A stretch of DNA of 63,004 bases, filler included, from Kipferlia bialata (Eukaryota): assembly GCA_003568945.1 (NCBI GenBank). It is 5 parts of 5 records of this genome, joined end to end, with 100 filler letters (N's around TTAATTAATTAA, not from the genome) between each part and the next. Parts side by side here need not be neighbours in the genome. Positions count along the whole stretch, not along the records: positions 9,468 to 24,452 come from BDIP01000754.1; 4 more parts are not named here. One strand, 5' to 3'. This document shows, in pieces, positions 2,973-57,793 of this stretch. The translations under genes were made by a program, and so were the position numbers. Every line of letters begins with the position of its first letter. Positions within the stretch are counted from its first letter, which is position 1. Below the pieces are notes generated by a model, which saw nothing but the letters and a program-made list of their open reading frames with translations, did no database searches and was not told where the DNA came from.

Positions 2973-4213
2973 CTACACTGCGTCATGGATACTGGCAAGG
3001 AAGGCGTCGTGCTTGCTGATACCCTTCCTGACCTTTGCTAACTGGGCCTTCCACTCGTCAGTCATCACCACCCTCAGGACCCTCCCCTCCACCTGCACAG
3101 CCACTCTGGCCCCAATCAGCAGCTCAGACGCGGCATGGGCCCTGTCCTTGTGGTACTCAGAGACAGGGGTGGGACGCCGAGCAGACCACCGGCACCACTG
3201 CCCGTGCAGTCTGGTGGGGTCAGATGGGATGGCGAAGTCCGGCTTGGTCCTGACCCTCATGTCTGACCCCAGGGCAGACAGGGTCCTGGGGTGAGAGGGG
3301 AGGGGGGGGGGGGGGCACGCACCGCCCTGGAGAGACACTCTGTACCTAGGCATCCTCCAGATGTCTGCCTCCTCACTGTCTACTGTGGGCCCTGACTGGA
3401 CCCTGGCCTGTCTGTGGGCCTCCTTCTCTATGGTGTCTCTGACCACCACATTGCTCAGCTCACACACTGACACACCGTGGTGGGTCTTGTAGGGGATCTC
3501 CTTGGGGGCCACTGTGTAGCCCTCACTTCCCTTGTCCTTGTAGATGCGCCTGTGCAGAGGGTACAGACGCCGGAACTGGAGTCAGGAACAACACGTAACA
3601 ATCACAATGAGATATATAATGACACGAGTCAAACTCTTATACTGTAGATAGGGGACACAACATCCACCGCAGGTACCTGCCCTGGTGGTATGCCCTTGCT
3701 CTCCTGCATCTGGGACACAACCTGGAGTAAGGGGAAGAGGGCGAGAGAGTGACTTGGATAGACGTGAGGGAGGGAGGGAGGGAGAGATGATAGTAATACG
3801 ACAGCACACATTATAGGTACCCAAAGGCGACTGAAAGGAAAAGGTTGGAGACGTTGTATAGAACAGCATGCCACACACAACCGAAGCAACATAGAGCATA
3901 TATGTCGTACCCGTACTATATGGGGGTGTGCGATAGGGGTAGCTCCGGTGTGCTCCGCTGGGACCGTGCCGATCCTTCCGTCATGCCAGGCAGAAGCTGT
4001 GTCCATGCCGCACAGGACACGGGGGATGAGGGCGCCATTCCTCTCCGGCACTGGGGCCATGGTCTTGTTCTCGGGGACAGGCACAGCCACTCCGGCACCA
4101 AGCCTGTGACGCAACCGCCTGCCCCACTGAGTCCTCCGATAGGACTCCTCAACCTGCCCGGGCTTGGCCGTCACGGCACCGTACAGGGCGAGCTGCTCGC
4201 TACTTATCACCAT
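2973..4213 (-). CDS. Hypothetical protein, probably 3 exons
   Basis: ORFs 4213-3911 and 3575-2973 join in frame via a middle exon (~3721-3677) with GT donors and TTACTCCAG/CTGACTCCAG acceptors; no family recognised. Confidence 0.55.
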
Positions 4214-5388
4214 GGCTTGGAGAGTCTCTACTGAGTCTACTAAGTCAACTGAGTCTACTGAGCCAGGAGGGACCTCAACTCCCAGCGGTGTGGGTTCAGC
4301 CAGCTAGAGAGAATAAGTATGGACAATTATAGGGTATGTGGTGATAAGTGCTAAAACACTCGACTTTTGAACTTAGGACTCAACAAACACCAACACTCAT
4401 ATATAAGCTTACTTCTCCACACCCACATACATATACGGAACATAACCGAACTCCGATGGAGGGAGGTCATCGTATGATGGGGAACGTGACCTACAATTCA
4501 CCGGACCTAATCATGCCCCTGCTACTCGGGACTCCCAGTTCCAGATTCAGAGCCAGGGTTGGCCCGTTCTTCATATATACCCAGGGGGTAGCTCATCTGT
4601 ACTATACAACCAGGTCCCACGCTCTGGTTAGAGTGAAGGCGTCCAGCCTTGGTACCAGGTAGGGTCAGACTCTTAGTGTTTATGAAATTTATTGACGTGT
4701 CTACCTTCTTCTATAGTCGTCTTCAGAATACAACAACTACTATGAAATATTGTGGTATGTCCATTGTCTTTATAGGAATTGTTAGGCTCAGCCTGGTATT
4801 TCTCTGTCCGGCGTCTATCTCACCCCAGCATCATCAGTTCTCTGTTTCTGAGTTGTCGTGATGCCAACCGGAGCAGCCTCGCCGCTCTTGCATCCAAGCT
4901 CGACCTGCCCTTCCTAGGTACTCTAATTGGCACCTGAGTCTTCATCGAATTATATATGACTCACTTGATATCCCCCCCCCCCCCCCCCCCCCTGACTCCC
5001 CNNNNNNNNNNNNNNNNNNNNNNNNNNNNNNNNNNNNNNNNNNNNNNNNNNNNNNNNNNNNNNNNNNNNNNNNNNNNNNNNNNNNNNNNNNNNNNNNNNN
5101 NNNNNNNNNNNNNNNNNNNNNNNNNNNNNNNNNNNNNNNNNNNNNNNNNNNNNNNNNNNNNNNNNNNNNNNNNNNNNNNNNNNNNNNNNNNNNNNNNNNN
5201 NNNNNNNNNNNNNNNNNNNNNNNNNNNNNNNNNNNNNNNNNNNNNNNNNNNNNNNNNNNNNNNNNNNNNNNNNNNNNNNNNNNNNNNNNNNNNNNNNNNN
5301 NNNNNNNNNNNNNNNNNNNNNNNNNNNNNNNNNNNNNNNNNNNNNNNNNNNNNNNNNNNNNNNNNNNNNNNNNNNNNGGGGGGGGGGG

Positions 5389-5424
<36 letters not shown>

Positions 5425-5492
5425 TCCACACTATCAAGAGAGTTATGCATCAATCCTCAGCTGTATACATCTCTCTCTACTCCCCTCCTCAC

Positions 5493-5635
5493 CTGCTAAA
5501 GTTGTGGCTGCGCCTCACTAGCTCATACTCACTGTCCTGCAGGGACTCACTGCCCTTCTCCTCCACAACAGCCGCAAACTCACTGAGCCTCCGAGAGAAC
5601 TCTGCCGGCTTGAGGGTGGTGTTGTGTGTGGACAT
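5493..5635 (-). CDS. Probable exon of a hypothetical gene continuing into the N gap
   Basis: MSTHNTTLKPAEFSRRLSEFAAVVEEKGSESLQDSEYELVRRSHNFS followed by an AG|GTGAGG donor; coding-like codon usage. Confidence 0.35.
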
Positions 5636-6098
5636 GGTCCAGACACCACAGGGGGGGTCAGGCTAGGTGGTAGTCTCTGGCTTCCTACTCTATCTGCTTC
5701 TCAGGTCTATTTGGTATCACTCTGGGCAACAGTGCCCACGTCTCTGGTTGGTAGACCCCCAGGCGGTACCACGGGTACCAGAAGAGCCGCTGGGTCGCTA
5801 CAGAGTACAGTTATACTGGGTGAAGGAAGGCCATGCAACTGACCATAATTTGCCTTGCAAATCCCAAGAATAGAGGATTTGAGGGTTTAACTAAATTGGA
5901 CAATAAACTTGTCACAGTGACATGACGTCTTCGAAGACTGTCATACATATTTAAAGACTTTAGACTGTCTGTCTATTGACACACAGCATCCAATATACAG
6001 GGATAGCTCTTGAATGACATAACTATCAGCAGGAAACACACTTGACACAAAAAGATACCGAATACACTAAACCCTTCCTCCCACGCCTACTCCTATGC

Positions 6099-6238
6099 CT
6101 ACTCCTGTATGTGTGCCCTGACCGTGCCCAGGATGGGTCTGGTGACAGCTATGGTGGGCTGCCTCATCCTGCCGTACATGGCTGACTCCCTCTCCTGGGC
6201 TGCTAGCTGCTGAGACAACAGCCTGGAGTGAGAGAGGG

Positions 6239-6269
<31 letters not shown>

Positions 6270-8432
6270 GACTGTGTGTGTGTGCCCACCTCCTATGCTC
6301 CTGGTCGGACACAGTGTTGGGTGTATTGGCCAGTCTCCTATTCCTGGCTACTCTCCGTCTCTCCCCAGGTGTCTCCCCTCCCTCCCCCTCCCCCTCCTCT
6401 GTCTCTCCCCTGGCCCTACTAGACACATGGCCTGGCAGCATGTCAATGGCACCCCTCTCCTGCACAGTCAGAAGGCTGTGTCTGTACATAATGACATAGT
6501 GTGAAGGGTCAGTGCAATCATACAGTATAGCCACCCCCACCTGTCTGAGTGCCTGCCTCTGCTCTGTGGTGGCCCTTCTCAGTATGGCCTCCAGGTGGCA
6601 CAGACGGTGGGCATACTCCTAATCATGAGACACAGTCATACAGAGTCAGTGTACACTATGTATATACACCCACCTTGATGTCCCCCCTGCCCATCCTCTC
6701 TCTCAGCAGGGCAGGGCCTGACATGGAGGAGTAGTCAGGCCGGGCACCCTCCCCCTCACTCCTATCTCCTCCCTCTGATAGTAGTGCCTTCATCTCCTGT
6801 CTAGCCTTCCTAGTCTGGGGCAGTGTCTTCGGCATGTCTAGCTGACAGGACTGGTAGATGCAGCCCCTCGCAGCAGTCAGCTGGTCTGGGGTTGGATCAT
6901 GTCAGATAGATAGAGAGAGAGGGTTTCAATACATACTATATACACGTACCCAGCTTGTGCCTGAGCCCCTCTATCCTGTCCAGTGTGACTGGGATGGCAC
7001 TGCATAGAGAGTCAGCCTGGGCAGACAGCCCAATAAGAGTGTCAATCTCCTCACGAGGCAGGTCCTGGGGTGAGGTGGTATACACACCGGGTGTTCATCA
7101 CATATGCATACACCTCCTACACCCACCTGTACACTGAGGCCTAGTCTGGTTGGGATACCGCGGCTGGTACCTAGGGGTCAGTAGTGTACATGGTTATACT
7201 GATCAAGGGGAACATGTATTCAGGTGTATGTGCGTATATGTCGATATACCTGGGTACTCCCCCACCATGGCCTGTCTCAGATTGAGGTCAGCTGGGGGCC
7301 TGGGTGTCAGAAGCAGTGGCAGGGTATGTAAGACAGGTAGAGAGGCTTGTGTGTGTATACCTGACGTCTGCCGGGAGGGGCACATCCTTGGCCCCAGGCA
7401 CACTCTCCAGTGCAGACACCCTAACAGTCAGACACACAGAGAGAGGGGTGTCAGGATACATACGCTCACACAGTCCTGGGCTGTCCTACCTTGAGTAGAG
7501 GGTGGCCATCTTCTGGGCCTTCCTCTGCTGCACATAGCCTTCCTGCCTGACATTGGGGTATAGTGAGAGAGAGAGAGTAAGAGAGCGAGTGTGTCCACGT
7601 GTGTGTAATCCATACCTCTTGTGCATCTTTGCATATGCCGATGCCTTGGGCATGTCTAGACTGGCAACACGGGCCTTGACCTCAGCTGCCCTTGGGTGAG
7701 AGAGAGATAGAGAGAGAGAGAAAGGGATAGAGTATGTGTGCACTCCCCATACCTGTTCCTAGCATATGCAGAGGGTCTCTTCATGGGGGCAGTCCGGCAC
7801 TGAGGTGAACAGAGGGAGAGAGAGAGAGGCACCATATCCGTAGTCTGTCCCATATACACTACATACACCCTACCTTGATGGATGTGTCTCTGTGTGCCCT
7901 AGAGGCCTCAGGTCTCTGCCGGGTAACAGTCACCTCAGACTGCCTCAGATGCAGCGGGAGCGGCTTCATGACCTGGGAGAAGAGATGTAGGTGGTATATC
8001 ATCCATATACTGGTGAACATGAGAGTGACTGGGAAGGGTATCTGATTACACGTACGTGTGCATCGATGTCTGGCGACACCTCCAGCTGGGACCTGGTGGG
8101 GTGGTGGGGGGGCAGTCTGCGTCTGGCACGAGGGACAGCGGGAGAGGAGAACTGAGTGAGACAAATGGAGTACCAAAGCTTAATCGAGTCAATAGTCACT
8201 GACCCCCATATACGCTCTTTCAGCCGCACTGGTTCTACTAGCAACATTATCACTCTTCTACACTTAGTAAGAAATATAGACCCACTGAGAGTGACAGTGG
8301 TGCCAGATGGCCAAATAGAATCATATATATAGCAAGTAAGTGTCAACTATGTATACAATGCACTCTGTAAGTCCAACACACCTGAGACTGACGCTGGAAC
8401 CGGCGGACATAACTGTCGTCCTGGGCAGGCAT
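6099..8432 (-). CDS. Hypothetical multi-exon basic/helical protein (~11-12 exons)
   Basis: Chain of short exons with consensus splice sites: MPAQDDSYVRRFQRQSQ | FSSPAVPR... | AAEVKARVASLDMPKASAYAKMHKR | YVQQRKAQKMATLYSR ... LLSQQLAAQERESAMYGR...HIQE-TAG; start uncertain. Confidence 0.5.
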
Positions 8433-11696: not shown

Positions 11697-14600
11697 CTAT
11701 CTAGAGAAGTGCTTCCGAATGGCCTCTGTTATGGCATTGGCTCTGTTGGTGAGATATAGTCTGTGGAAGTGTCACATACAAAATAGTATATATTATATGA
11801 ACATTGTATTGTCATAATTGGTAAGAATATCATTAGTTTGCAAGTGGTACAGTCATAAAATAGGAAGAATGTGAACATGGAGAGAGAGAGAGAGAGAGAG
11901 ACATACCTCTCTCTACTCATGGCCCTGACTGGAGAGTGGAAGGATAGACGGAACCCTCTGTGGTGGCACTTGGTCCTGAAGGGTCAATATCTACACATCT
12001 AATAGATACAAATATACATAAATCACACAATCAATACATATACATATATATATATATACTGTATGATCAATAGACGGAACCCACGGTGGTGGCACTTGGT
12101 CCTAAGAAGTCAGACAGTATATAGTCAATAGCATATACCAAGAATAGATACAAATGTAGATAGAAACTTGTAAATTGAATATAATCACCCACTTTGGATG
12201 AACGAAGTCATCGAACACTGTGCATGATGTGAGCTCTACCATCTGTCTCTGCAGGTATAGAGTGAGGTCAGCTCTGAACGCATCGTTGTTGAAAGGGGTG
12301 GATGTGCCTCTCGCTCCCTCTCTCTCAATGACGAGGGAGACATCTCTCTGGGATAAGAAGAAAGAGACAAATACATGGATAAATCGGGTGTAAGTAGCAA
12401 ATACATATATCAGGGGAGATAGAGGATATAGTGACAGAAAGAAGAACTAATGAATTGGCATTGAGGACATAGACAAAGAGAGACAGAGACAAAGAGAGAG
12501 AGGAAGATACCTGGAATAGTAAGGGGTGCAGGCAAGGTGTGTCAGCTGATGCCACACCAACAGTGTCAGCGGAATATGGGGTGTAGGACTCTCTGACAAA
12601 CACATGGGTCATGCTATCTCCAGAGAGGAACCTGATCATTAGAGGGAGAGAGATCCATATTGACACAAGTATATATACATACATTAGATATATATATATT
12701 TTTATATACATTAGAGAGAGACAGATATATATAGAGTATACAATTGAACATTATAAGGATAGACAATGAATACACTGTGTACCTCTGTCCCGTGTTCTGG
12801 TAGCCACATGGGTGGTACCCCAGTGCTCTGAAGGGCTCCAGGGGGAATGGGTAAAGGGCCTAAGTCAGGAGAGAGAGAGACAGAGAGAGAGACATAATAG
12901 ATATGTATACCTTCAGAATCAATCCGCTCTACTCATGTCATGTATTCATATATCGTATATAGTACACACATTACTATTATTGTATACACATATGTGTGTA
13001 GGCTATATATACCTTTAAGATCAACCCGCTCTGCCCTGTCATGTCATGTATCTGCCACATTGAACATATGCATATATATACAATATTGAGCATACTTACT
13101 CATGTATTAATGATATATAACTATACCTTAAGAATAAGTCCACCCTGCCCTGCCAGGTCCTGTATCTGCACCCTTATTACACATAGATACAGTACCATAC
13201 ATTCATAGTCATATACATTGATACATACCTTCAATATGAGTCTACCGTGCCATATCACTCTCGCTCACTATATACAACACAATATGTATATGTTGTAAGT
13301 GTATTCACTAACACATGGTAATGGTATATACCTTTAAGACCAACCCGCTCTGCCCTGCCATGTCCTGTATCTGCCACGTGTCCTCATAGCGTCTGAGGGG
13401 TGAGATATATAGTACTTAGACACTACTGCAAGTGAATATATATACAACATGTATATCCTGTATCTGTCAGGTGTCCTCATAGCGTCTGAGGGGTAAGATA
13501 TATAGTACAGAGACCCTTTGCATGTGAATATACAGTATATACACTACATGTATATACTGTATCTGCCACGTGTCCTCATAGCGTCTGAGGAGTCAGGATA
13601 CTAACACCCACGCTATATAAGTGAATACAATACATTGTAATCTGTGGCTGATACTATTTGAAAGATGAATACCTAATCTCCGACTCCCCTGCTGTACCAC
13701 TCTTACAAAAATGTAGAATAGACATATATATATAGTATACTAACTGGACATATACATGTATGTATATGTTCAGAATGATACCTTATCTCTGAGTCCCCTG
13801 CTGTCCCGCCCTGACTATACAATGTATATGTATACTCAATGTAACAACTTATTGTTAAACTACAGTAGATAGTGTATTATACCTAATCTCCGAGTCCCCT
13901 GCTGTCCCGCCCTGGCCCCTGGCAAGGGTCATCCAGACCTGGTGTAAGAAATATATATATTAACAATTTTATACTAATGTATATTGACGCAAGGGTCACC
14001 CAGACCTACAACGAGTAAATACATCCAATAGAGAGTGATAGCGAGACCTTGGCATGGTATAAATCGATACATACCTCCCCTCCCTCCGCTAGAACTGCTC
14101 TCCCACCGTTCTCAGTACGGTCAATGGATGCTACTGCTGCAGCGAATGTGCCTCTGAGCAGGGATCTGTGGAGCTAGGGATTAGGACAGTAATAGATACA
14201 ATTAGATACTTACTATTTCAATATAATTTCTGTATATACTAACTATACTGATTCATTTCTGGTCAAAGTATACTGAAGAGAACTCGAATGTATAAGTACC
14301 ATAGTGAATAATGCAACACCTGAATCTAATTTCTGGCCATTGGCCTCATAGTAACATATATCCCTTCATAAACGTTACTGTAAATGAACATTTGCATATA
14401 CAATTGCATCACCTGGATCTTGTTTCTGCAGGTATATATAAAGATAGATATGGGTAATGATTGCATACATACCTGGATCTTGTTTCTGGCCTTTGGTCTG
14501 GGTGGGAACTGGGGGAAGTTGAACACTACTCTGTCGAAGCCAGAGCTGGTGTTATCATGGAAGACTCGCCATTAATTACAATATACTTGAATTAATGAGT

Positions 14601-16177: not shown

Positions 16178-17856
16178 ATGTTCACCCAGGCTGTGTCTGA
16201 TGCCATACGAACAGAGGGGACCCTAGAGGACACGTATCAGGTTGGTGTGTGTATGCTGTATATACATATATACTTGTCATGATGGAGACTGGTATATATG
16301 TATATATATATGGTTGACTCATTAATGCTTGAAGGAGAGGACATGTGTATCAGACCTGTTTTCATTCATTTCGGACTGTCTAGCACCCCCCCCCCCAAAG
16401 CAACATCACATATTCATATGGGTGTTCTTTCTGAGTCAGGTTGTCATTTAGCAGGTGGTATCTCCCTCTCCCGTCTGTGGGTGTCTATGAACACGTAGTA
16501 TATCCCTCTGTTCTGACTGTTAGGCTGTCTATGAGCAAGTTGGTATCTCTCTCTCTCTCTCTCTCTCTCTGACGTCTCTATCTTTGTCTTTCTGTCTTCT
16601 GACTCTAAGGCTGTATATTAGGAAGTAATCTCACTCTCTCTCCCCTCTCTCTTCTGACTCCTAGGGTGTGTATGAGCAAGTGAGGCATGTTCACAAATAG
16701 TTCTCTCTTCTCTATCTATCATCCCCCCCCCTACCTCTCTCTACTGACTCCCAGGCTGTCTATGAGCAAGTCAGACATGTCCACACCAGAAACATGGACA
16801 TTCAGGCCCTACTTAAGCAGGTACATGTAAGAATATATATATGGAGAGAGAGAGAGAAAGGGAGAGAGAGAGAGGGCAGGAACATGGACATGCAGGCACT
16901 GTATATTTCTAACTATGTATACGTATACCTCTCACTTACATCAAGAGAGAATGTTATGAAGGAGTACCTCTCTCTCAGACATCGCAAACATGTGTATTGG
17001 AAGTCTTGTAATACCCTCTCACCCCCAGCGCAAGCTCCTGCCCAATGGTTTGACGCCCAACCAGGTATCATCACAGTCTATATACGCAGTGAATATTTTC
17101 ATACATTAGGATGAGTAAGTAGCATATACATATTGCTCTGTAATCCGTACTATGTTAACCACAGGTCAAGAGCATCCTCTATGAGCTGTCTGAGTTGGAT
17201 AGTAACAACGCCAAGGGACATGCAGGACTGGGGGAGAGGGAGGGGAGGTATGGTACATATATATATGCATTGTCTATTTGTGGATAAATGATTATATCGT
17301 GTTCTAATCTTTGGTTAGTGTCCTCTGTTGTGGAGGAGATGACACCTACAAACCTTCATATTATATGTGTGGTTTTGATGTTCTCTCTCTCTCTCTATAT
17401 ATATATATATGTTCATGTATACTTACCCCAGGTACCTGTCCCCTGTGGTGGAGGAGAGGACATTCGGCATAACTACTTGATATACCTAGTTTTAGATTAC
17501 TACCTGTATCTACATATACATATGTCTACCTATCCCAGGTACCTCTCCCCCGTTGTGGAGGAGACACATGCATTCCTACTCAATTAGTGACTTGTGAATT
17601 TCTACCTATACTACCTGTTTTAGTAACTCCCCCCCTTAGATACCTGTCCCCTGTGGTGGAGGAGAGGACACTTATCACACCATTGATATATAGTCTCAGT
17701 TATATAGTACTCCATATATATATCTATATAAATACGTTACTCACCCCCTTAGATACCTGTCCCCCGTTGTGGAGGAGAGGACATACGGCATGGCACACGG
17801 GATAGGGAGGTATGTATACTACTATGAAATGTTGATATTTACGTTAATAGTCACCA

Positions 17857-17899
<43 letters not shown>

Positions 17900-20800
17900 G
17901 ACATTCGGCATGGCACACGGGATAGGGAGGTACGGACATATGTGATTACGCATGTATGCGTGCCATATGTATATGTAGAAGTCTCTTGGTAAATATATGT
18001 TTGATAACTGACCCTTAAGGATTGGTAGGTATATATATGGTATCAATTCGTCTCTTTTTTATGTTTGCATTCTGACCCTCAGAGGTGGTGACCTTACAGC
18101 TGCCCAGCCCAAGGCAATAGGTGGGTGTACATCTTTCTATATTATTACGTTTACATATACATATATTCATAAATATTCTGGAATCTGGGCTCTACCCTGA
18201 TGTTCCTCTTGCCTTGACACATATACTCACATACATTATATGTATTGGTGCTCACATATATACACATATATGTCAGCATATGTATTTGTTGTCTCGTGAC
18301 TCACCCAGGCTCTACCCTGCTGTCCCTCCTGACCTCACGCATGGCACACGCAGCAGTGAGGTAATACATATATAGATATAGAGAGAGAGAGAGAGGGAGA
18401 GAAGGAGAGAAGGAGAGAGAGATAGTATCTGTTGACATCCCGCCTGGCACACGCAGCAGTGAGGTATTGTTTTAAGAATAATTGCAATCACTTCAATATA
18501 ATATATGCATAGAGCTATATAAGAGAGTCTCACCCCCATACAGGCTGGGTACACCAGTGTCAAGGAGACCACAGTGCTACCGGTGGCAACAGGTATATAT
18601 GCCTATATATTAGTATATAAATGTATTTCCTTGCATATGAACCTATGTCTCACTCCTTAGCATGTCCATTAAGCTCTCTCCCATCTCCATCATGCCGTAT
18701 ACCGCATATACATAGAGTATACATAGACATATATTTATATATATATGTATATGAATATACATCATCTAACCATTCAGGCATGTCCATCATGCTGTCCCTC
18801 CTGTCTCTTAGGTCCATACACCACTACATGTACATTGAGTATTTTATATGTATATACATATTAATTAGCTCTGTCTAATATCTAGGCATGTCCATCATGC
18901 TCTCTCTCCTGTCCCTCAGGGCCTTGAACCCTGGTGCAGACTCTGTCATATGGTGCAGATGTGACCAAAAGTCATGCCCAAAGGTATATAGTATATACAT
19001 ATGAAATTTACTAGGCATATGTGGGTGTGAATTTACATGTATCTCAGACCTGATATACCATAGTGTTTCTATTATGCATATACACATACACATCTGTATA
19101 TATTCAGATGGCAGCCCCACTCTTTGCCCAAGTTAACTACTAATCATATAAGGACATATTTATATATGTATGTGAATACACTTCTTACCGTAGGCTGTTC
19201 AGATGGCCGGTCTGACCCTTGTACCCGTTGATGGTATCCTGGAGACTAATCAGAGTAGAGAGGCGGAGAGAGTGGTGACTGACCTCACTGGTGTGGCCAG
19301 GGCCATAGAAAAGGTGTGGATACTCATTATACACTATTAGTTACTCTATTCTATTCCAATATTCTTTTTACTTCTGACCGGGGTGGCCAGAGCTATAGAG
19401 AAGGTATTGTTCCTCGTCTTACATATATACAAGTGTTGTAATAGAAAACATTGTAGTGTATTGATGTATTATATATATATATATGATATTATGAACGGGG
19501 TGGCCGGGGCTATAGAGAATGTTTACGCTTCTATGCAATATTTGGTAGGGATTGTCCTATGTATGTTATGCTCCACCTCTCTATAAACATATACATACAC
19601 GCTACATATATTTTACACTCGACCGGGGTGGCTATAGTGAAGGTGTGGATACATATTATTTAGAAATATACATATGTGTGTATGTGTGTGAAAGGCTAAT
19701 ACAAAGGAATCACTCCCCCGTGTCCTGTGTGTGATATGCATCACCTCTCCATCATATGTATTCACTACATGTTATACACATACTATGTATTTCTGATTAT
19801 TAGGTCACCCTCCCCCGTGTGTTGTGTGTCATATGCACCACCTCGTGCTTCAGTCCAAGGGAGCCAGACAGGGTGCCGGAGATAGCAGGTATATATACAT
19901 ATATACGAATGAGTTAATATATATATATAGAGAGATAGAGAGAGAGACAGATGTTTCAGTCCAAGGGAGCCAGACAGGGTGCCGGAGATAGCAGGTATAT
20001 AGCAATACTATACATGAATATATATGTATATATATACATGGGCAGAGAGAGATGGAGATAGAGAGAGAGCCAGACAGAGTGCTAGAGATGGCAGGTATAG
20101 TGCCAATATGTATACTGTACTGTATTTTTCTGACTTATAGGCATATGCAGTGTGCTCAACATACCTCTCCTTGTCAACAATGCCTATGGGGTGCAGAGTA
20201 AGACATATACATTATAGGTGTTACTCACTCATAGGCATATGTAGCATAACTGGTGTACATCTTCTGGTCAACAATGCCTATGGGGTGAAGTATATGAAAA
20301 GTGTGTATTCTATTGCTATGTGTAACTGACCCTTAGGCATATGTAGCATTACTGGTGTACCCTTCCTTGTCAACAATGCCTATGGGGTGCAGAGTAAGAC
20401 TGCGGCCAGGCTAATCAGCCAAGGCACACAGAAGATTCCAAGGTGCCCTACTCCAACACATTTCCTTCGATTGTGTGTGTGAATGAGTATGATAGAACAA
20501 TCGGTTCTTGTGATCTTTGCATATGTCTCCTAACGTCAGGTTGACTGACGATGTCCACTGTGTCCTGCAGCGACTGAAACCCGACGCATATATCACAAAT
20601 GGAAGTTCTCAAAGGCCATCACTCCCTCTTGATCTGAAAGGTACACATGTACTTGACAAACAGAGCACCGATAAACTAGCGATATATGTTTATGTATATA
20701 TATATGTACATATCATCTTATAGTAGGTCGAGTAGACCTAGTCATCCAGTCCCTCGACAAGAAGTCTTGTATACATCCATTAACCCATGCACATACTTAC

Positions 20801-23641
20801 ATACTTGTATAATAGATGTATAGACACAAGAATCTTCTAATACTAGGCCGCGTTGACCTAGTCATCCAGTCCCTCGACAAGAACTTCGGGGTGCCAGTTG
20901 GGGGTGCCCTACTCACTGCGCCAGGTATTATATTAGATAATACTATAATAGTACCATTATACATATATAGTGTATGTAGAGTATATTGTACATAATCTAC
21001 TTTTGGGGTGCCAGTTGGGGGTGCCCTACTCACTGCGCCAGGTAGAGTGTACATATACCTCAGCAGATGAATATATTCCTCCATTCTCTTAGATGGGCCC
21101 GCGCTCTACCCTCTGTCCTTTATCTGATATATATTTCTTTAAGTGTCCCTCCCTCTCAGTGGAAATCTCTCTCATCCCAGCCCGTACCCTTCCCTCCCAC
21201 CCACTTCTCCCATCCACTCTGTCCAGACAGGAGAGAGGGGTCATAATGAGGTATTGCTTCATATGGGTACTCATCGTGATTAATAACTTCTATTGTAGTC
21301 ACTCTAGTGTGACACTGACACCAGAGAAAGGGCCCAGTCTGACAAGGCAAAGAGAGAGCAGCCATCACTTTTGGCAAGGTATCTCATTAATCAGTTTGCG
21401 TCCCACAATATTCAACACACTTTCACGATATCCTTACCCCTGGCGCTGTTTCCTCCTACCTACGGCAGGGCATTTCTCTGTAATGTTGCACTAATCAGAA
21501 TACTTTGTATACAGAGTACACCTTCCCTTTCTTTACCCCAAGCCTCCTATTCATATATCACAATACATCTGACACTATAAATACAACAATAATTTCCTGT
21601 ATTCTTACGCGTAGGGTTGTGTCCTCCTGGCAGAGCATAGGTTGCATATCTCTATTTATGTGTTACATTATATATATATGTATATCCTCACCCCCTAGGG
21701 TTGTGTCCTCTTCCCCTGGCAAATGATCAAAGCGTATACACTATATTCATATCTATGTGAAGTATGCTTACCCTAGGGTTGTGTCCTCCTACCCTGGCAG
21801 GGCATCGGGGGCAGAAGTCATGGACTTGTTCTGTACGTGACTTGTTGTTGTGTTGCTGGGTCTGGAAAGTAAACACTCATCCTCATATTCTGTCTATTCT
21901 ATATTCTGTATAGTATACTAACAGTTTAGGCACCCTTCTGGGTCTTGGTGAGTCCGGTTGGAAAGAAGTCCTGGAGCAGAGGTGCGTTTTGGACATTACA
22001 TTCTATTCTCAATATGTAGCTGATTGACACTCCTTACACCAGGATAGATGTACGCGCCTACCTGACTGCTGAGGTCACGGTACTCTGCAACAGACACAGG
22101 TATGTCACTGTACACCAATATACACATACAGTTGTGGTAATTGCTGGTTGTGCATCGACCGCAATTTTTTTTGAGTGGGCGGCATATATCCAAACCGTGG
22201 TCACGTCACCCTGTTGCCCATCAAACACAATGTATATAAATGAACACACTATAAGCAGAAAATTGTATTGTGTGTCCATACATATGCTTGGGTACCCACA
22301 CCAGTGACCACCTCACTCTGTTGCCCATCAAGCACAATGACATCTCCTGTGCTGTAGTGTTCAAGGAGATGGGGGAGGATCAGTGCAAACAGGTATGATA
22401 TACTCATCTGTATACATAATAATGTATATACATAAATCATGCAGTAGTGTTCAAGCGATGGAGGAGGAACAGTGCAAACAGGTATATGATTGCTTATGTA
22501 AATACTACTCAACAAGTAGTGTCGTTGTTGACACTTTCTCACTCTCAGGTTGGCTCCCTCATGTTTGTGAGGGGTGTGAATGAGTTCATATGTACATATG
22601 TATATGATACAGTATATATATTCATGTGTATATAAATATCATTTATCATATATTTACCCTAAGGTTGGCTCCCGCATGTTTGTCAGGGGTGTGACTGAGT
22701 TCATATGTACATATGTATATGATATACGATATATATATGTTCATATGTATATAACTATTAAGTATCATATACTTACTCTAAGGTTGGCTCCCGCATGTTT
22801 GTCAGGGGTGTCACTGGGTCCAGGGTCTGGGTCACACAGACAGAGGACAAGGTATATATATATAAATATATATTATATATTTGTATTATTATTATATGTA
22901 TACATACGTTGTGTGTATTGTGTCAATGGGTCAAGGGTGTGGGTCACACAGGAGGAAGATAAGGTAGGCATGTAATCTAGATGAGTAGATAGGCAATATA
23001 TATACATTTCACATTCTATATATTACTGGGCCTCAGGTCTGGATCACACGACACGACAGAGGATAAGGTAGGCATAGGATATATATATATATATTGTGAT
23101 ATCTATGTTGTATATTATTATCACCTGGGCCCAGTGTTCTCTTCACACACTATCTCCGTCTACTTCTTGGACTGTATATTCCTAAAGATGAAGATAACAT
23201 GTTCAACCGCAATAACTCTTTTCAGACGGTAGGACCTGTATCCTTTACAGGGCATATTGTATTCATGCACGCATACGTGTGTACACTTCCCTTTTCATTA
23301 CAGAACTGTACTTATTCACTTACCCATCAGCTGATTGGCCCTGTCTCCTTCAGGGCCTGGGGATCCCATCACTCAGAGTGGACTGCCCCGTACATCACCT
23401 TCGCCACTGCTGTTGGAATGACAAGGTGAGATGTATGTATGCACTGGTATATCAATATTTCATATACTTCACGATTGACTCCTACGTATGTTTCTATTAC
23501 TCATACTTGTGTTCTATGTCTGCGTAGTATTGCATTCTACATATATCATATTTCTGTGTCTCTGACGTCAGGTCTGAGGTAGACAAGGGCCTCTCAGTCT
23601 TTGAGGAGTGCCTGCTCTCGGTGCTCAAGCAGCCCGTGTAA
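16178..23641 (+). CDS. SEPSECS: O-phosphoseryl-tRNA(Sec) selenium transferase (SepSecS), ~20 exons
   Basis: LDSNNAKGHAGLGEREGR, HGIGRGGDLTAAQPKAIG, VLPVATGMSI, WCRCDQKSC, TTSCFSPREPD, VNNAYGVQS, IQSLDKNFGVPVGG (PLP lysine), SYPGRAS, YITFATAVGM; ATG 16178, TAA 23639-23641. Confidence 0.95.
17432..17929 (+). repeat. Exon-echo cluster around SepSecS exon 17753-17809
   Basis: Acceptor plus 5'-half copies starting 17432, 17539, 17640; 3'-half plus GT copy 17900-17929. Confidence 0.92.
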
Positions 23642-25912: not shown

Positions 25913-28900
25913 ATGGCACTCCCTCGCCTGCATGACTTCATCTTTGGCGTAGTGGCCCAGACTCAGAGGGCCCAGCCCACTCCGAGTCACAATCCCAACG
26001 ACGTCCTGGAGCATCTGCAGATCTACTACCAGAAGTACCGTGCAGCATGTAAGGGGTCAGTCTCCATTCCCGAGGATGTCCTGGGGTTCATTCTCCCGTC
26101 CTATGCTGCTGCATGTGATTCCACCATGGCTATGTACTCCTGTGGATCTATGGCAGAGGCCGGACGTATTAGGTATATAGAATTGACATCACCTCTATTC
26201 TTGCTGATGATGATTACTCACCTTCAGACACACCTTCGTGACCTCCATCAATGACCGTGCCAAGGCCATCCTCGAGAGCGGCCTCAGGTCCCAGCACTGG
26301 AACCGTTACCACGATCACAAGATGGGTCTACTCAGGTAACGTCAGTGTAGCTGGTGTATGTACTTGAGTTTTCTAGTAACACTATCATCCATATTTGTAA
26401 TGTTATTCCCTCACCCCTTAGATACGAGACCGAGCACCGCTGCATCGACCCCTCCCACACCAAGGGCGTTGCCACCTTCCTCTCTCTCTTTGGCATCACT
26501 GGCCAGGGCATACACGCACCCCTCTTCAGGGTCGTGCTACCCGGCAAGGTCAGAGGGCGCCTCGGACTAGGGGGGTCCAGGGCTGACCCCGATCTGCCAG
26601 TGCTCAGGAAGATATTCGCTATATGCAGGTGGGTATTTCTACGCGGTAACATGTCGGCATAACTTGTCACCACTCGGCTCACCCCCCAGACTCGGTCCCT
26701 CCCACGGTGATGTCGTGTCTCTGTCCAGTTCTGTGGCACCCCGTTCCACCCTCTGTGCACTCAATGTAAAGGTACGGAATGGTATATACATAAAACAATT
26801 ATAAAGGAAAGTATGTATGCGCATGCTGTGTCATCCCTATCTACCACTTCTAATCACTAGGGTGACAGGAGCGTTGTGTTCCTGTACACCGAGGGACTGG
26901 AGCACCTGGCCTCAGAGGTGTACAACAGGTAGAGGAGTCGATCTACTAGTATATATCTACCTGTCTATTTGTTCATTGTGGTCTTGGGTTACATAATGTG
27001 TACCAGTGCATTTAGCAGTCAGTTATGAATGTATACATATGTTTGTGTTTATTCTATTACATCTCTTCTCCCTCAGACTCTGTGGGAATACCCTCATATT
27101 ATAGTATGTCAGCTATGTATCCCTCTGCATTGTGCCCCCCCACCCTCTCACCCCTAGGCTTGTGAGGCTGCATGTCATCTCTGAGGCAGGGGATGTCCTG
27201 TGCGACAAGGACTCTATCCTAGGGGGGTCCAGGGAGCTCGACCACTCCACATACCCCTTCAACCATGCTGGTGTGGCCATTGTACTCGACGTCGTACCCA
27301 CCCAGAAGCTCCGCAACACCGCCAACTGCCTCATCAAGTCCCTACCCAGGAGGTTCCCCATCCTCTACGACCCCAGAATCAAGATGGGGACGCTTCGTTA
27401 CGGACGGACTCAGCAGCCGCGCCTTGTCTACCACCTCCTCGACAGGACCCACGGCCCACCCCTGCCATCCAGTGGTGAGGGTGTAGAGGAGCAGGAGTGC
27501 CAGGCACCATCCAGTGCCCCCCTCGCCCCCTCCACACTCCAGATAGGCCGTATTGCCAAGCAGATTGGCATTGCCCCCCCCACTGCTGATGACGGTGCAG
27601 CCTCTCTCACTGAGGCCGAGGTCCAGTTCTGCACCACCCGCTCCTCCTGCCTGGCCATAGGGAGGGCAGGGTCTGGCAAGAGTGCCTCCCTAGTGCTTAG
27701 ACTGATGGCAGACAGGGAGACGGCATCCAGGCCCCTCTTTGTCTCTCTCTCCCTCAACCTGGTGGCCGAGGTCCGCAAGGTGGTCAGGGGGGATGCACTC
27801 CCAGACCAGCGTGCCATTCTGTCCCTCCCCAACAACCTCAGCGACCTCTCCCCCGAGGCCTTCCCCTTGTTCCTCACCATTGACAAGCTGCTTCTCATGC
27901 TGGACGGTACCGGCTCTGCCCCCTTCTTCCAGCCTGCTCCCTCCACTGTCACCATAGGGCAGGGGGAGGGAGATGGGGATGGAGAGAGTGGTAGTGCAGA
28001 TGGGTGGGGAGATGCCGCTGACGCTGAGAGGGTGTGGAACGTGGGTGGTCTTCCCACCACCCGGCACTCCTACTCTGTGCACCCTAGGACAGGTGAGGTG
28101 CAGGACCACGAGGTGTGGCACAGGGCAGGTCACTCTGACTTCCTCAGTGCCTACCCCTCCATCGTGAGATCTGTACTGGCACAGGTCAAGGGTGGAAGGG
28201 TGCCCACCCCCAACGCGGCACTCCTCACAGCATATGCCCAGGCCCAGAAGGCAGCTGGTAGGGGGGGCAAGCAGCCTCTGCACCCTAGGGATCTGAGGGG
28301 TGCCAACCGCGATGCCGTCCTGCAGTGGATCCCAGAGTTTGGTCTCTCCTACCAGGCTGCACTAGATGCCATACCTGGTGCAGACGTAGCCTATCAGGAG
28401 ATCGTGACCCACATTACAGGGTCCTTCCCCTGTGCCTCCCAGGGTGCCCCCCTCTCCCTGAGGCAGTACCTGCAGATGGGTACCGGCCAGTCCCTCCTGT
28501 CCACCCAGGCCAGGTACCTGTGCCACCTCATACACACACACTGGGCGGCACACAAGCAGGCAGCACGCCTCTACGAGAGGGCAGATGTGGTGCTCCACGT
28601 TGTGCGTGCCCTCCACCAGGGCGCCATATCCTCTGCGCAGTACAGGTCCCGTGCCGCTATCCCCATCGACAGCGTGTACATCGACGAGTGCCAGGACCTC
28701 ACTGCGGCATACGTCTACATGCTGTTCCGCATGTGCCCCGCTGCGGCACGGTCCTTCTACATGGTGGGCGACACTGCCCAGACCATATCCAGGGGGGTCG
28801 GGTTCAGGTTTGCCGATCTCCGTACCGCCTTCTACCACACCCTTCAGAGAGAGACACTGCTGGCAGAGAGGCACTCTTCCGTGCCAGACCTGCTCCACTT

Positions 28901-31900
28901 CTCTGTCAACTTCAGGGCCACACGCAGCATCGTGCGCCTCTCCTCTGCACTCTCTCTCTCCCTTGCCAAGCAGTTCCCTAACTCTGTGGACGCACTCCCT
29001 AGGGAGACCGTCTACAAGGGCCCTGGTAGTCACAAGGGGAAGGGCGAGGTTCCCAGGCTGCTCATCGGAGACCCTGACTCTCTATTCAGACTGGTCTGTG
29101 GAGGGGGAGGCGGGGGCTCTGGCAGGATAGAGTTTGGTGCCAAGCAGCTTGTGGTGGTGAGGTCCGACACCGATGCCAAGAGGCCCTTTGTGTCTGGTCT
29201 GGCAGGGCACGGCCTGTGGCTGACTGTCCTGGACTGCAAGGGACTCGAGGCGGATGGTGAGTGGTGATAGTTATACATCGTAAACATCTATATTGTCTTA
29301 GTTCTTGTTACTCTCTCCCTTACTCCAGATGTGCTTGTCGTTGGCTTCTTTTCCAGTGCCGAGTGCGTCCTCTCCTCTTGCGACTCTCACTCTCCCTCCA
29401 GCAGTGCTGATGAGGCCTCTGACATTGGAACTGACACTGCGTCTGCGTCTGCGTCTGCGTCTGCCTCTATCTCTAGGAACCTCGCCCTAGCCTCCGAGCT
29501 CAAGCACCTATACGTGGCAGTCACCCGTGCTAGGAAGAGGCTGTGGTTCGTCGAGCCCGAGTCCTCTCGCTCTGACGTCATGGGGAAGCGTGCCGTCCAG
29601 CGCCTGATCGCCAAGGGTCTCCTGCAGCTGACCGATGTCGACAGCGTGGGGGGTGGGGATGCAGCATTTGGCAGGGCCTCCACCACTGAGGAGTGGGGGG
29701 ACAGGGCTAAGGAGCTGATGGCCAAGGGGTACTACCAGGCAGCACTGAGGGCCTCGGCCTATGCCGCAGACCCACTCCTTACCACCCTCTGTAAGGCATA
29801 TGTCACTGCCAGCCAGGCAGATGGGGCAGCCGTGCAGGAGAGGCCCTCTCTCTTCTGCGAGGCAGGGTCTCTGTTCAGCAAGGCCTCTGAGTCCAGACTC
29901 TCTGCCCAGTGCTATGTCTCTGGAGGTATGTACCAGAGGGCAGGGCACATGTTCGAGACTGCGGCAGGTGCAGTGGTGGGTGGGGTGGGCGCCAGACCCT
30001 CTACAGTGTCTAGGGCCTCTGAGTGGGACTCTCTCCTCAGCAGTGCAGAGTATGCATACAGGAGGGGTGGTATGTACCTGGAGGCCGCTGAGATCGCAGG
30101 GGACCGCAGGGGTGACCACACTGGTGCCCTTGACCACTGCTGTGCGGCGGTGAGGGCATGTATAAGGGGAGGGGAGCCATGCAGTGCTGGTACCCCTGTC
30201 GCTGAGGCTATTGTCAGACACAGTGCTAGTGTACTGGCATCTGACACTGTAGATGTGGAGTCCCGCCATGCCCTGCTGAGAGGTGCCGTGCACATCGGTC
30301 TCTATGCCGCAGGGGCCTCTCCCTCTGAGAGAGAGAACCTTAGACAGTCTGTGAGGACTGCAGTGCAGGCCAGTACTGTCGACGTGGATGCCACCCTTGC
30401 ACCCACCTTCCTGTCTCTGTCCTCCACCTGTACCGACTCAGCGGAGAGGGCCTCTGTGCTAGGTGCTCTTGTGCTACTGACCACATGCTCTGCCGTGACC
30501 GCCTCTCGCTACACCCACCTTCTGCCCCACTCCGGTGTGTCTGCCATGATGTCCAGCAAGGAGGCCAAGGGAGTGTCTACTACTGATACACCCCAGCAGG
30601 AGAGGGTACCCATCACCTCTGTGCTCGACAGTGCGTCTGACACTCTCACTGGTGGCAACTCTTTTCTCTCCCACCCCCTGACCTCTGCCGCAGGGTGTGG
30701 TCTCACTAGGGTGTCAGTGGGTGATGACACCTCTGATGCCCGCACTCCCTTTGCCCAGCTCTGCCGTCTCTCAGCTGCCACCATCCCTGTCAGGTCTCTT
30801 GGTGCCAAGGGTCCTCTGGGTAGGAAGGGGGCTCGCACTCGCACATCTGTCGGTGACATTGTAGCTGGTGGTCTGACCCTTGCCCTCTCAGCCATCAAGG
30901 GACCTGTCTCCATGTCTCTGTCTGTGGGGGATATCACTGCTCTGGCCAGGTCTCTCTCCAGGCTACTGACCTCCCTTACCGAGTGCAACCCCCCTCTCCA
31001 CACCCAGTGTGACGGCATGCTGTACTCTTCCCTGGTCTCCCACCTCGTGCGTGCCCTTCTCTGCCTCTGGTGCCATGTATACACACTGGGAGAGGATGAT
31101 GTCACTGACGACCTCCGCCTTGCTCTCTCACCCTCCCTCAGGCCCTCTGCCTCTGACCCCGCTATGTGTAGACTGCTAGGGGGGATGGGTAGCGGGGTGT
31201 CTACCAGGGACAAGAACACTAGCGAGGCATATGCAGTGAGGCGCAGTCTGAGGGGGGTGCTGGAGGGTGTCTCCATAGTGTCTGCATGTGCCTCAGCCAG
31301 ACACACTCTCTCTCCCTCTCCCTCTCCCGAGGGTTCTGACTCCGACTGGGGTGTGCTACAGACTGCCCTGCAATCCATGTCTCGCAATGGCCTGCCCCTG
31401 CTCTCCCTGGCTGTGTCTAGACTGCCAACACGGAGGGTGGAGGGAGAGGAGGAGCCCAACCTCACTGCTGACACTGCTGTAGTGGTAGAGCTGGAGGGGT
31501 ACCGGCAGAGGGGGGAGGCTGTACCTTCTAGTACACAGGCCCTTCTATCCACCTCTGTCTCTGACCTCTCTCTCTCTGTGGACACACCCCTCCACCCAGG
31601 CCTCTCCCTGTGCTCTACTCACACCCTCTGTGCCGCTCTATCCATGCCCCCCCTTGAGCTGAGGGCCAAGGCCTGGGACGTGGTGGATGCATACCTGGCA
31701 TGGGATGGCACACCCACCCTGGCTGACACACTCACTAGAGGGGTGGATGCCATAGTGGAGAGGGAGCTGGAGGCAGACAGGGTGCTGAGGGAGCAGAGGG
31801 AGAGAGAGAGAGCACACACCCTCAGACTCCAGAAGGCCAAGAGGGTCAGATACGCACAGGCCAAGCAGGCCAAGGCACAGATGAGGAAGATGAGGGGGAG

Positions 31901-31913
31901 GGCCAGGAAGTGA
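25913..31913 (+). CDS. TRANK1-like superfamily-1 (UvrD-type) helicase with TPR-like helical C-terminus
   Basis: GRAGSGKS (Walker A), VYIDECQD (Walker B), GDTAQTISRGVGFRF, NFRAT, KGLEADDVLVVGFFS across intron 29257-29328, ELKHLYVAVTRARKRLWFVE, STTEEW; about five short 5' exons from ATG 25913, then exons ~27159-29256 and 29329-31913. Confidence 0.85.
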
Positions 31914-39797: not shown

Positions 39798-40297
39798 CTG
39801 GTCTTGTGGTGGTAGAGCATGGCCCTCTGCATCATGGGGATGGAGTCACCTCTCCACAGGATGAACACAAACTGAGGGTGAGGAGACAGGCAATGCAGGT
39901 ACCTACAACGTATAACAAGAGTACACCGACTGTAACCTTGGGCAATAGGAGTGCATATGTAGGTGTAAGTACCTTGACTCTGTGGGACTCGGCGTCACCA
40001 GCAAGGGTCCTGAACAGCACGTACACTGCCTTCTCCTCCTCAAACAGGTGAGTGAACTCATCAACGTCGTTACGGCCAGTGCCGATAACCTGAGGGTCAG
40101 ACACAACTACGTTGGTGCATGTATGATGCTCCTAATATGCACAAACCGACCTTGATGGTGTCCCTGGACCTGCCCTCGTAAGACAGGGCAACCCAGGACA
40201 GAAGGCCGTTCCTGACCTCCTGGAGCTGCTCCTCCACCTTAGGGAGATCCTGATATCAGAATAGAACTCTAACTGTTACCTCAAAGAGCAGGGTCAT
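39798..40297 (-). CDS. COTL1: Coactosin-like ADF-H actin-binding protein (3' end lost at scaffold end)
   Basis: MTLLFE|DLPKVEEQLQEVRNGLLSWVALSYEG...|VIGTGRNDVDEF..VYVLFRTLAGDAESHRVK|FVFILWRGDSIPMMQRA matches the coactosin GD.ES.R.KFVFI.W.G pattern. Confidence 0.8.
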
Positions 40298-40770
40298 CAG
40301 AAAGAGCATATGAAATCCCATTGCTTGGTAAAGAGCCAATCACCAACCCAAAACACACCCTTTCCAGCCAATCATACCCATGATCACACTCACCTCCACA
40401 AACATGTTGTCGAACTTGCTGGTCATCTTAATTGGACGCCTATTTGTTGGAGAGTTGACGTGGACAGAAGGCTCTCTCCGAGAATTGTCCGACTCATTGT
40501 CGGAAAGTCAGGGTTCCAAATGGAATGGAGCTTCCATTAGAGTACGATGAACCTACACACATAGATGCGGTACTTCTGTATGACTGTACTCCAAACCAAT
40601 ACAATGTGAGGTGGTGCCGACCTCAGGCCCATGCATACTGCTGTTTCGCTCTAACTTATCTGTCGGATGACTACACCCTTTCGCTAGCAAAAACCTGGGT
40701 GATCAGCTGGCTCTCTCTTTGTTGGTATAGGTGTAGCGACGACAGCAACTGATAGAGAGTACACCTGCAC

Positions 40771-49231: not shown

Positions 49232-49314
49232 GCACGGATGGCCGAGGGGTTAAGGCGTCACGTTCAGGTCGTGATTGAGATTACTCAGCGTGGGTTCGAA
49301 TCCCACTTCGTGCA
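49232..49314 (+). tRNA. tRNA-Leu(CAG)
   Basis: Acceptor GCACGGA/TTCGTGC+A, A-box TGGCCGAGGGG, anticodon stem TCACG/CGTGA with loop TT-CAG-GT, long variable arm TGAG-ATTA-CTCA, T arm GTGGG-TTCGAAT-CCCAC, followed by TTTT. Confidence 0.95.

Positions 49315-57759: not shown

Positions 57760-57793
<34 letters not shown>

Follow-up and report, generated by a model that had tools for sequence, protein, structure and literature searches.

Half-exon echoes in the introns of Kipferlia bialata are likely displaced pieces of formerly coding alleles

Kipferlia bialata is a free-living protist, a fornicate. We analyzed a window of 63,004 nt of eukaryotic DNA from its assembly GCA_003568945.1, consisting of several pieces joined by runs of N with a linker, in which many exons are accompanied in the adjacent introns by partial copies of themselves, here called echoes. 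These half-exon echoes are likely displaced pieces of formerly coding alleles, because their differences from the live exons are concentrated at silent sites and most of them bear intron parts with no clear relation to the live flanks. A preliminary description of this DNA had proposed that the upstream and downstream echoes of an exon fit together as one old exon, split when a break was repaired by insertion of a single intron–exon–intron patch from another allele. Its "other allele" component agrees with our results, in that the echoes derive from another coding version of the exon, but the single patch that leaves both halves behind finds no general support and is at most possible for a few exons.

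Thirteen gene models were curated in the window, comprising 140 exons and 127 introns with open frames throughout; four were based on annotated proteins with corrections and nine on our own predictor. Exons of up to 300 nt were scanned for echoes with a score threshold that was passed by 17 of 2,567 cross-gene pairs. The exons matched their own upstream intron in 42 of 124 cases and their own downstream intron in 39 of 125, and matches in non-adjacent introns were found in 13 of 1,655 exon–intron pairs. The echoes are therefore real and occur far beyond chance. We catalogued 116 of them, 61 upstream and 55 downstream of their exon, with a strict polarity: the upstream echoes represented 5′ parts of the exon in all 61 cases and the downstream echoes 3′ parts in 54 of 55, with the exon start reached by 57 of the 61 upstream matches and the exon end by 50 of the 55 downstream matches. 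No clear whole-exon copy occurred among the 116, and both exon ends were approached by none of the upstream matches and one downstream match (39 of 46 nt, at an exon with an uncertain start). Five echoes that scored below 30 and six more that were not anchored at a splice site were set aside in the breakpoint tests, and the remaining 105 were spread over 61 of the 140 exons. Splice signals were mostly kept (AG in 44 of 55 upstream echoes, a branch motif together with AG in 40 of 55, and GT in 47 of 50 downstream echoes). The mean echo lengths were 32 and 37 nt, compared with a mean exon length of 72 nt, and echo length did not increase with exon length. Up to four differing copies were present per exon side. 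The echoes were clustered by gene, and SepSecS, PPWD1, FDX, and the greater part of GEX1 carried approximately 1.3 of them per intron. The annotated Kipferlia proteins skip nearly all of the echoes. Inverted echoes were rejected as a general class (1 of 249 matches), as was whole-exon duplication followed by erosion, which predicts upstream 3′ halves or whole copies (0 of 61 upstream matches).

Three further observations concern the distribution and form of the echoes. Four gene models with 23 introns, at 2973–8151, 25913–31913, and 39798–40418, were echo-free, and their echo-rich neighbours were on other pieces. The minus-strand region at 52560–54578 contained further echo-like tandem arrays (112-nt period, 94%). 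Two downstream echoes in PPWD1, at 42413–42456 and 42510–42544, start at an acceptor-like sequence inside the exon, so that the former could act as a short complete exon.

The pattern of divergence points to a coding origin. Echoes and exons mismatched at rates of 0.069, 0.054, and 0.197 at codon positions 1, 2, and 3, respectively, and the ratio of replacement to synonymous divergence (pN/pS) was 0.25 (182 synonymous and 143 replacement differences; bootstrap 0.20–0.30 over 61 exons), whereas a neutral copy beside a constrained exon would give approximately 0.5 and never fell below 0.37 in 1,200 simulations. A CpG effect was rejected as the cause of this bias, because the ratio was still 0.28 without CpG sites. 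In three-way comparisons, 90 differences were private to an echo and 12 to the live exon, and the echo-private pN/pS was 0.21 (0.13–0.32, 15 exons). Since the changes are mostly echo-private and synonymous-biased, the echoes look like independent samples from a set of working alleles. Two simpler histories were rejected on the same grounds, namely frozen echoes beside an evolving live exon, in which the live-private changes should not be the minority, and successive snapshots of one lineage, for which an echo-private ratio of at least 0.5 is required algebraically. After correction for multiple hits, at least 0.18 of the synonymous divergence of 0.31 predates the echo state. The changes that followed show no sign of coding constraint: stops made up 5 of 112 changed codons (4% expected) and the replacements were no more conservative than random (P = 0.13), so that the replacement changes look like later neutral decay and the echoes are not coding now. 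Indels amounted to 11 events in approximately 3,000 columns. Synonymous differences were somewhat rarer within 10 nt of the junction (48 of 252 sites) than beyond (152 of 575), a weak signal that is partly an effect of end-calling.

All of the sequence facts named in the preliminary description were present, but the fit of the halves did not exceed chance, apart from the post-hoc overlap counts given below. Among the 92 internal exons of the eight echo-bearing gene models, 16 had echoes on both sides, against 14.0 expected (P = 0.39; P = 0.085 over all 113 internal exons, with echo-free genes included). A further 24 exons had only upstream and 21 only downstream echoes; that is, 45 of the 61 echo-bearing exons were one-sided. 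The gaps between the nearest halves in the 16 two-sided exons were −15, −15, −15, −14, −13, −7, −4, −3, 0, 1, 1, 7, 10, 26, 26, and 59 nt. Against six nulls, neither the mean absolute gap (P 0.12–0.96) nor the median (P 0.45–0.97) stood out, and abutment within 3 nt occurred in 4 of 16 exons, with 2.4–3.6 expected (P 0.21–0.51). Near-fits are expected because of the lengths of the echoes and exons given above, in line with the caveat of the preliminary description that overlaps in short exons may arise by chance. The correlation between the upstream end and the downstream start was negative (rho = −0.56 when both were expressed relative to exon length, −0.36 with length removed), and the paired halves were unmatched in divergence (rho = 0.28, P = 0.29). 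Nor did the overlaps resemble a target duplication: of the 214 overlap sites in 19 pairs, 44 distinguished one half from the other, and only four differences from the live exon, at three distinct sites, were shared by both halves. Variant sharing between the halves was at the chance level, with 4 shared among 48 variable sites compared with 12 among 104 in unrelated same-side pairs (P = 0.78). Random gaps and the absence of variant sharing, the outcome that the preliminary description had considered fatal to its own model, are thus largely what we observed.

The locus singled out in the preliminary description is exon 5 of SepSecS, at which the following features were identified.

17319–17344, plus strand: upstream echo, exon positions 6–31, with an eroded acceptor side
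17432–17470, plus strand: upstream echo, positions 1–39, with an AG acceptor, no donor, and TTC
17539–17564, plus strand: upstream echo, positions 1–26, with an AG acceptor and the same synonymous type as the live exon (CCC-GTT)
17640–17670, plus strand: nearest upstream echo, positions 1–31, with an AG acceptor and the same type as 17432 (CCT-GTG)
17753–17809, plus strand: live exon 5 with both splice sites; TAC encodes Tyr94
17810–17899, plus strand: 90-nt spacer with the live donor and intron-like sequence, no acceptor
17900–17929, plus strand: downstream echo, positions 28–57, followed by a GT donor, with TTC

The echoes at 17432–17470 and 17900–17929 overlap, as originally described, by 12 nt (exon positions 28–39), are identical over this overlap, and both carry TTC where the live exon has TAC. 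Common descent of the two TTC copies is indicated, because two independent changes at one base are unlikely. At position 94, SepSecS homologs have Phe in 18 of 58 cases and Tyr in 21 of 58; Phe is thus about as frequent as Tyr, and a working TTC allele is therefore plausible. The overlap stood, but the description had omitted three more upstream echoes (17319, 17539, and 17640), two of which stand between 17432 and the live exon, and the nearest of which has only a 4-nt overlap with the downstream echo. Among the upstream copies, two synonymous types alternate, CCT-GTG (17432 and 17640) and CCC-GTT (17539 and the live exon), and those at 17319 and 17640 end at the same exon position, which suggests a mosaic array. 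The sharing of TTC does not need a single event: the downstream echo may have arisen first, out of a TTC allele, and a later 5′ replacement may have displaced a second TTC copy.

The other loci at which halves had been paired, or at which gaps had been named as counter-examples, were as follows.

22549–23067, plus strand: SepSecS exon 22783–22851, with same-junction upstream echoes at 22549 and 22664 (119-nt tandem unit) and downstream echoes at 22920 and 23025
13013–13584, minus strand: FDXACB1/BMT5-like exon 13332–13392, with upstream echoes at 13552 and 13453 and downstream echoes at 13128 and 13013
44114–44462, plus strand: PPWD1 exon 44204–44339, with echoes separated by a 59-nt gap (counter-example)
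46565–47137, plus strand: PPWD1 exon 46653–46728, with one upstream and four downstream echoes and a gap of 20–26 nt (counter-example)
56641–57064, plus strand: GEX1/Kar5-like exon 56870–56948, with upstream echoes at 56641 and 56742 and a downstream echo at 57030; gap 0 or −1
58381–59022, plus strand: GEX1/Kar5-like exon 58444–58507, accompanied by one upstream echo, an internal fragment, and three downstream echoes that carry a donor

At 22549/22920, the A of the AAT variant is common to both halves, but the halves differ at four further sites within the 15-nt overlap; Asn was found at this position in none of 51 homologs. The FDXACB1 halves do meet, with an overlap of 10–18 nt around CAGATACAG, but have no variant in common. 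In GEX1, the echoes at 56742–56783 and 57030–57064 abut exactly as reported (gap 0), and a second upstream echo at 56641–56680 ends 1 nt later; the 14-nt overlap at 58381/58614 was also confirmed, with one synonymous change in common and one private. The PPWD1 counter-examples were real, with gaps of 59 and 26 nt. A two-sided event is possible at a few exons, such as SepSecS 17432/17900 and GEX1 56783/57030.

The sequences surrounding the echoes also differ from those surrounding the live exons. For the 27 echoes that were at least 95% identical to their exon, the median flank identity was 0.57, against a background of 0.49–0.50 between unrelated introns, and it was below 0.8 in 26 of the 27; an identity of 0.85 to the live flank was attained by 2 of 100 echo flanks. 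Junction microhomology, a check suggested with the original observation, was indicated: simulations of joins at 2–4 nt of microhomology bracketed the score of the 98 distinct junctions (best fit approximately 3 nt), and blunt-join simulations reached the observed score in 1 of 120 cases, in an indirect test that scored the intron-likeness of the exon bases by the junctions. The spacers between an echo and the next copy were rarely short: four of the 55 on the upstream side and none of the 50 on the downstream side measured less than 44 nt, whereas uniform cut points would give approximately 57% and 71%. Use of the echo splice site would produce an exon of at least 123 nt in 77 of 77 cases, compared with 106 of 114 internal exons at or below 123 nt, and the added length was a multiple of three in just 32 of the 77. 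On sequence grounds, the spacer sizes and the would-be long exons fit splicing by exon definition. Three other regularities were sought and rejected: the spacers do not start with a leftover donor (the best donor score at the junctions was no higher than at mid-spacer, P = 0.50), echoes nearer to the exon are not clearly younger (12 versus 8 of 20), and a fixed duplication size had weak support (rho = −0.33 upstream and −0.20 downstream).

These observations can be brought together in a mechanism to which we assign about an even probability: copying of the other allele from one side only, completed through microhomology end joining, with one echo per event and a filter imposed by exon-definition splicing. 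The upstream and downstream echoes of an exon would then arise independently, in separate repair events between diverged alleles. A break would occur within one of the short exons, which make up most of what is well conserved between the two alleles; one end would invade the other allele and copy the rest of the exon together with 45–95 nt of its intron. The extended end, instead of re-annealing, would be joined to the other broken end by 2–4 nt of microhomology, in a polymerase theta type of reaction, giving a complete live exon and an old half that has just one splice site. Survival would be limited to correctly spliced products, those in which the half has no partner site and the would-be long exon exceeds the normal exon size owing to a spacer roughly as long as an intron. 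Existing echoes would later be amplified and mixed by unequal exchange and would decay neutrally. A single junction of this kind runs from exon k into intron k−1 or from intron k into exon k, and the observed polarity is therefore an automatic consequence of geometry. The allelic template, the strand invasion, the enzymes, and the exon definition are inferred elements of this scheme. Dmc1 is tolerant of mismatches and favours the homolog. K. bialata is reported to be diploid, and the available portions of the published tables list PolQ, Spo11, and Msh2 for it but not Ku70 or Rad51A; metamonads are described there as being without canonical end joining and fornicates as having two Dmc1 paralogs.

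Several observations weigh against this mechanism. The echo flanks, although close to background, were weakly above it (P = 2e-5 upstream and 0.013 downstream), and very rapid slippage in introns rich in TA/CT may account for their divergence instead. Nine arrays were whole-unit tandems that include the intron part, with periods of 81–119 nt and 77–95% matches, and neighbouring echoes with the same junction had spacer identities of up to 0.90; we read the whole-unit arrays and common junctions as later amplification. The silent-site bias was uneven, as the ratio of 0-fold to 4-fold differences by live base ranged from 0.08 (T) to 0.46 (A), and FDX and PP2B taken alone had little bias at four-fold sites, of which there were few; moreover, nine of the 13 gene models are our own predictions without RNA or an annotated protein. 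Gaps between −15 and +3 nt were found in 11 of 16 nearest pairs (P 0.01–0.27) and between −15 and −10 nt in 5 of 16 (P 0.01–0.06), in windows that were picked after the catalogue had been viewed and among eight statistics, so that these P values are nominal and uncorrected; this weak, post-hoc excess of 10–15-nt overlaps is unpredicted by a one-sided model. In the C. elegans counterpart pathway, according to the available part of the report (PMC13031629), the homolog was not used and both copies came from the same homolog. Finally, the data do not distinguish strand invasion from a simple unequal join of two homologs.

That last explanation, in which an exon break and a nearby intron break on aligned homologs are joined non-homologously, without invasion and with exchange of flanking markers, would predict the same polarity, allelic signature, and microhomology, and Spo11 and PolQ are present; we consider it improbable, because it requires two nearby breaks and would not lead one to expect reduced synonymous divergence close to the junctions, itself the weak signal noted above. 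A more serious contender, if still unlikely, is tandem duplication on the same chromosome, through sister exchange or slippage, followed by gene conversion with other alleles, with fast-evolving introns erasing the similarity of the flanks. The whole-unit arrays, the same-junction neighbours, and the slight excess of flank identity all suit this origin, and mirage clusters have been described in like terms, with unequal crossing-over and concerted evolution, in the available portions of the literature. Without conversion, however, it needs a pN/pS near 0.5 rather than 0.25; with conversion, it needs tracts confined to the exon at nearly every echo, and the near-background flanks of even the most exon-like echoes remain against it.

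The single patch of the preliminary description, with both old halves left in a target-duplication-like overlap, is a distinctly unlikely main source of echoes. The identical overlap and common TTC at SepSecS 17432/17900, the exact abutment in GEX1, the clustering of nearest gaps with none overlapping by more than 15 nt, and a compatible allelic signature speak for it, and they are outweighed by the one-sidedness of most exons, the chance-level co-occurrence and gap sizes, the lack of a positive correlation between breakpoints, the many differences within overlaps, and the unmatched ages of paired halves. Present selection on echoes, as alternative exon parts or splicing decoys, would account for the retention of splice signals and for one echo built into the public SepSecS model; it is very unlikely given the neutral-looking stops and replacements, the indels, and an added length seldom divisible by three. 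An assembly artefact that stacked heterozygous haplotypes comes to mind with a diploid genome, a short-read draft, and a window joined from pieces, but is scarcely credible, since there are up to four differing copies per side with strict polarity, stops, and indels, and the units of approximately 100 nt are shorter than a typical read pair span.

The genes of the window were identified through protein matches. Exon queries matched Kipferlia bialata SepSecS, a hypothetical protein, a cyclophilin, and an unnamed 376-aa protein, and each of these could be spliced exactly onto the window; the hypothetical protein was divided in two by a run of N. Pfam searches of the window proteins identified SepSecS (PF05889), WD40 and cyclophilin domains (PPWD1-like), and a BMT5-like protein, which is the FDXACB1 of the preliminary description. 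The Pfam search of its GEX1 protein gave no match; the Atlas grouped this protein with Kar5/brambleberry, at a score of 0.95 and with Tht1 present on 42% of the members. The corresponding gene features are listed below.

16178–23641, plus strand: SepSecS gene, curated model of 23 exons in an open frame, 100% identical in its exons to Kipferlia bialata SepSecS P0001, with Pfam PF05889
17165–17247, plus strand: SepSecS exon 4 (live)
18083–18120, plus strand: SepSecS exon 6 (live)
54886–62887: GEX1-like (Kar5/brambleberry-like) nuclear fusion protein, from Atlas features

The Kar5/brambleberry/GEX1-like protein at 54886–62887 is relevant to sex in the Kipferlia lineage. In SepSecS, the acceptor at 18530–18544 apparently ends in AT rather than AG. 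Its use after exon 18309–18360 gives gap-free length agreement with the homologs, a canonical alternative would cost three residues, and the public model skips exon 18309–18360 and takes another acceptor; the AT may reflect a non-canonical splice site, a variant allele, or an error in the sequence. The public SepSecS protein also includes part of the downstream echo at 21002–21041 as an extra exon, which duplicates nine residues and is probably a gene-prediction error. Metagenome homologs of SepSecS were used for residue conservation only; the best 80 of 121 matches were all distant, with best segments of 23–52% identity. Elsewhere in the window, we noted a tRNA-Leu(CAG) at 49232–49314; a very long gene at 25913–31913 with two exons of more than 2 kb and a P-loop-like motif, the product of which appears helicase-like from a reading of its translation; and a probable exon at 7486–7560 that is absent from its minus-strand gene model, a gene that is echo-free, so that the counts are little affected.

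The closest known kind of sequence is the mirage repeat of amphioxus, described for the globins BflGb6 and BflGb9, Adh3, troponin C, and PGBD5 (PMC3087553, PMC3902484); no description of such echoes in Kipferlia was found in the literature searched, which covered few subscription journals and was available in part. The globin mirages are tandem duplications of 5′ and 3′ intron–exon boundaries with 81–100% unit identity, harmless to splicing, and the globin paper calls their mechanism unclear in its available portion. Both kinds are direct local duplications across the intron–exon boundary, on both the 5′ and 3′ sides, in Kipferlia mostly confined to adjacent introns; the units are of comparable size (10–160 bp in amphioxus, mostly 60–180 nt in Kipferlia), the splice signals are often kept, and the amphioxus copies are reported not to disturb splicing and to vary in number by unequal exchange. 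In contrast, mirages are known from a handful of amphioxus loci, whereas the echoes affect 61 of the 140 exons in this window; the former are whole-unit minisatellites, whereas most echoes have their own junctions and unrelated intron parts, with whole-unit similarity in a minority; and the silent-site bias is not mentioned for mirages in the available text. Duplicated mutually exclusive exons were rejected as a comparison, because complete open copies with both splice sites were not found and stops and indels were present.

Tandem duplication initiated by recombination and closed by polymerase theta has been reported in C. elegans tnsl-1 and Arabidopsis tonsoku mutants (PMC13031629), and the term one-sided invasion occurs in PMC9299229 and among the references of PMC4888836. 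There, too, one end copies past the break and is joined by microhomology to the non-invading end, leaving a direct tandem duplication; these events occur in mutants, whereas the Kipferlia units are of approximately 100 nt, naturally fixed, and apparently link sequence from two alleles. Intron gain by tandem genomic duplication or double-strand break repair (PMC3443670, available in part) is similar in that local duplication and break repair reshape introns while the protein is unchanged. It differs in that an existing intron grows in Kipferlia, with the live exon whole and no new intron, and in that the Kipferlia halves do not generally show short flanking direct repeats like those of the repair type.

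More broadly, and tentatively, Kipferlia may routinely swap exon parts for the version of a diverged allele by homology-targeted repair and park the old piece, sometimes both halves, in an intron, so that its introns would preserve a record of earlier alleles and would show directly that strongly diverged haplotypes recombine in a fornicate; we judge this broad reading somewhat less probable than its negation. The echoes mislead gene prediction in any case. If the reading is true, it would offer a testable mechanism for mirage repeats, and one genome could be read for allele history, with synonymous divergence of at least approximately 0.18 having accrued while both versions were coding. It would further point to recombination between alleles, and hence probably to sex or hybridisation, in a lineage that has neither Rad51A nor Ku, and it would imply exon-definition splicing in a protist that has base introns of 50–100 nt and a reduced spliceosome, reported with 87 of 174 proteins. 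The approximately 125,000 introns reported for K. bialata would provide roughly a thousand-fold greater power for the same tests across the genome.

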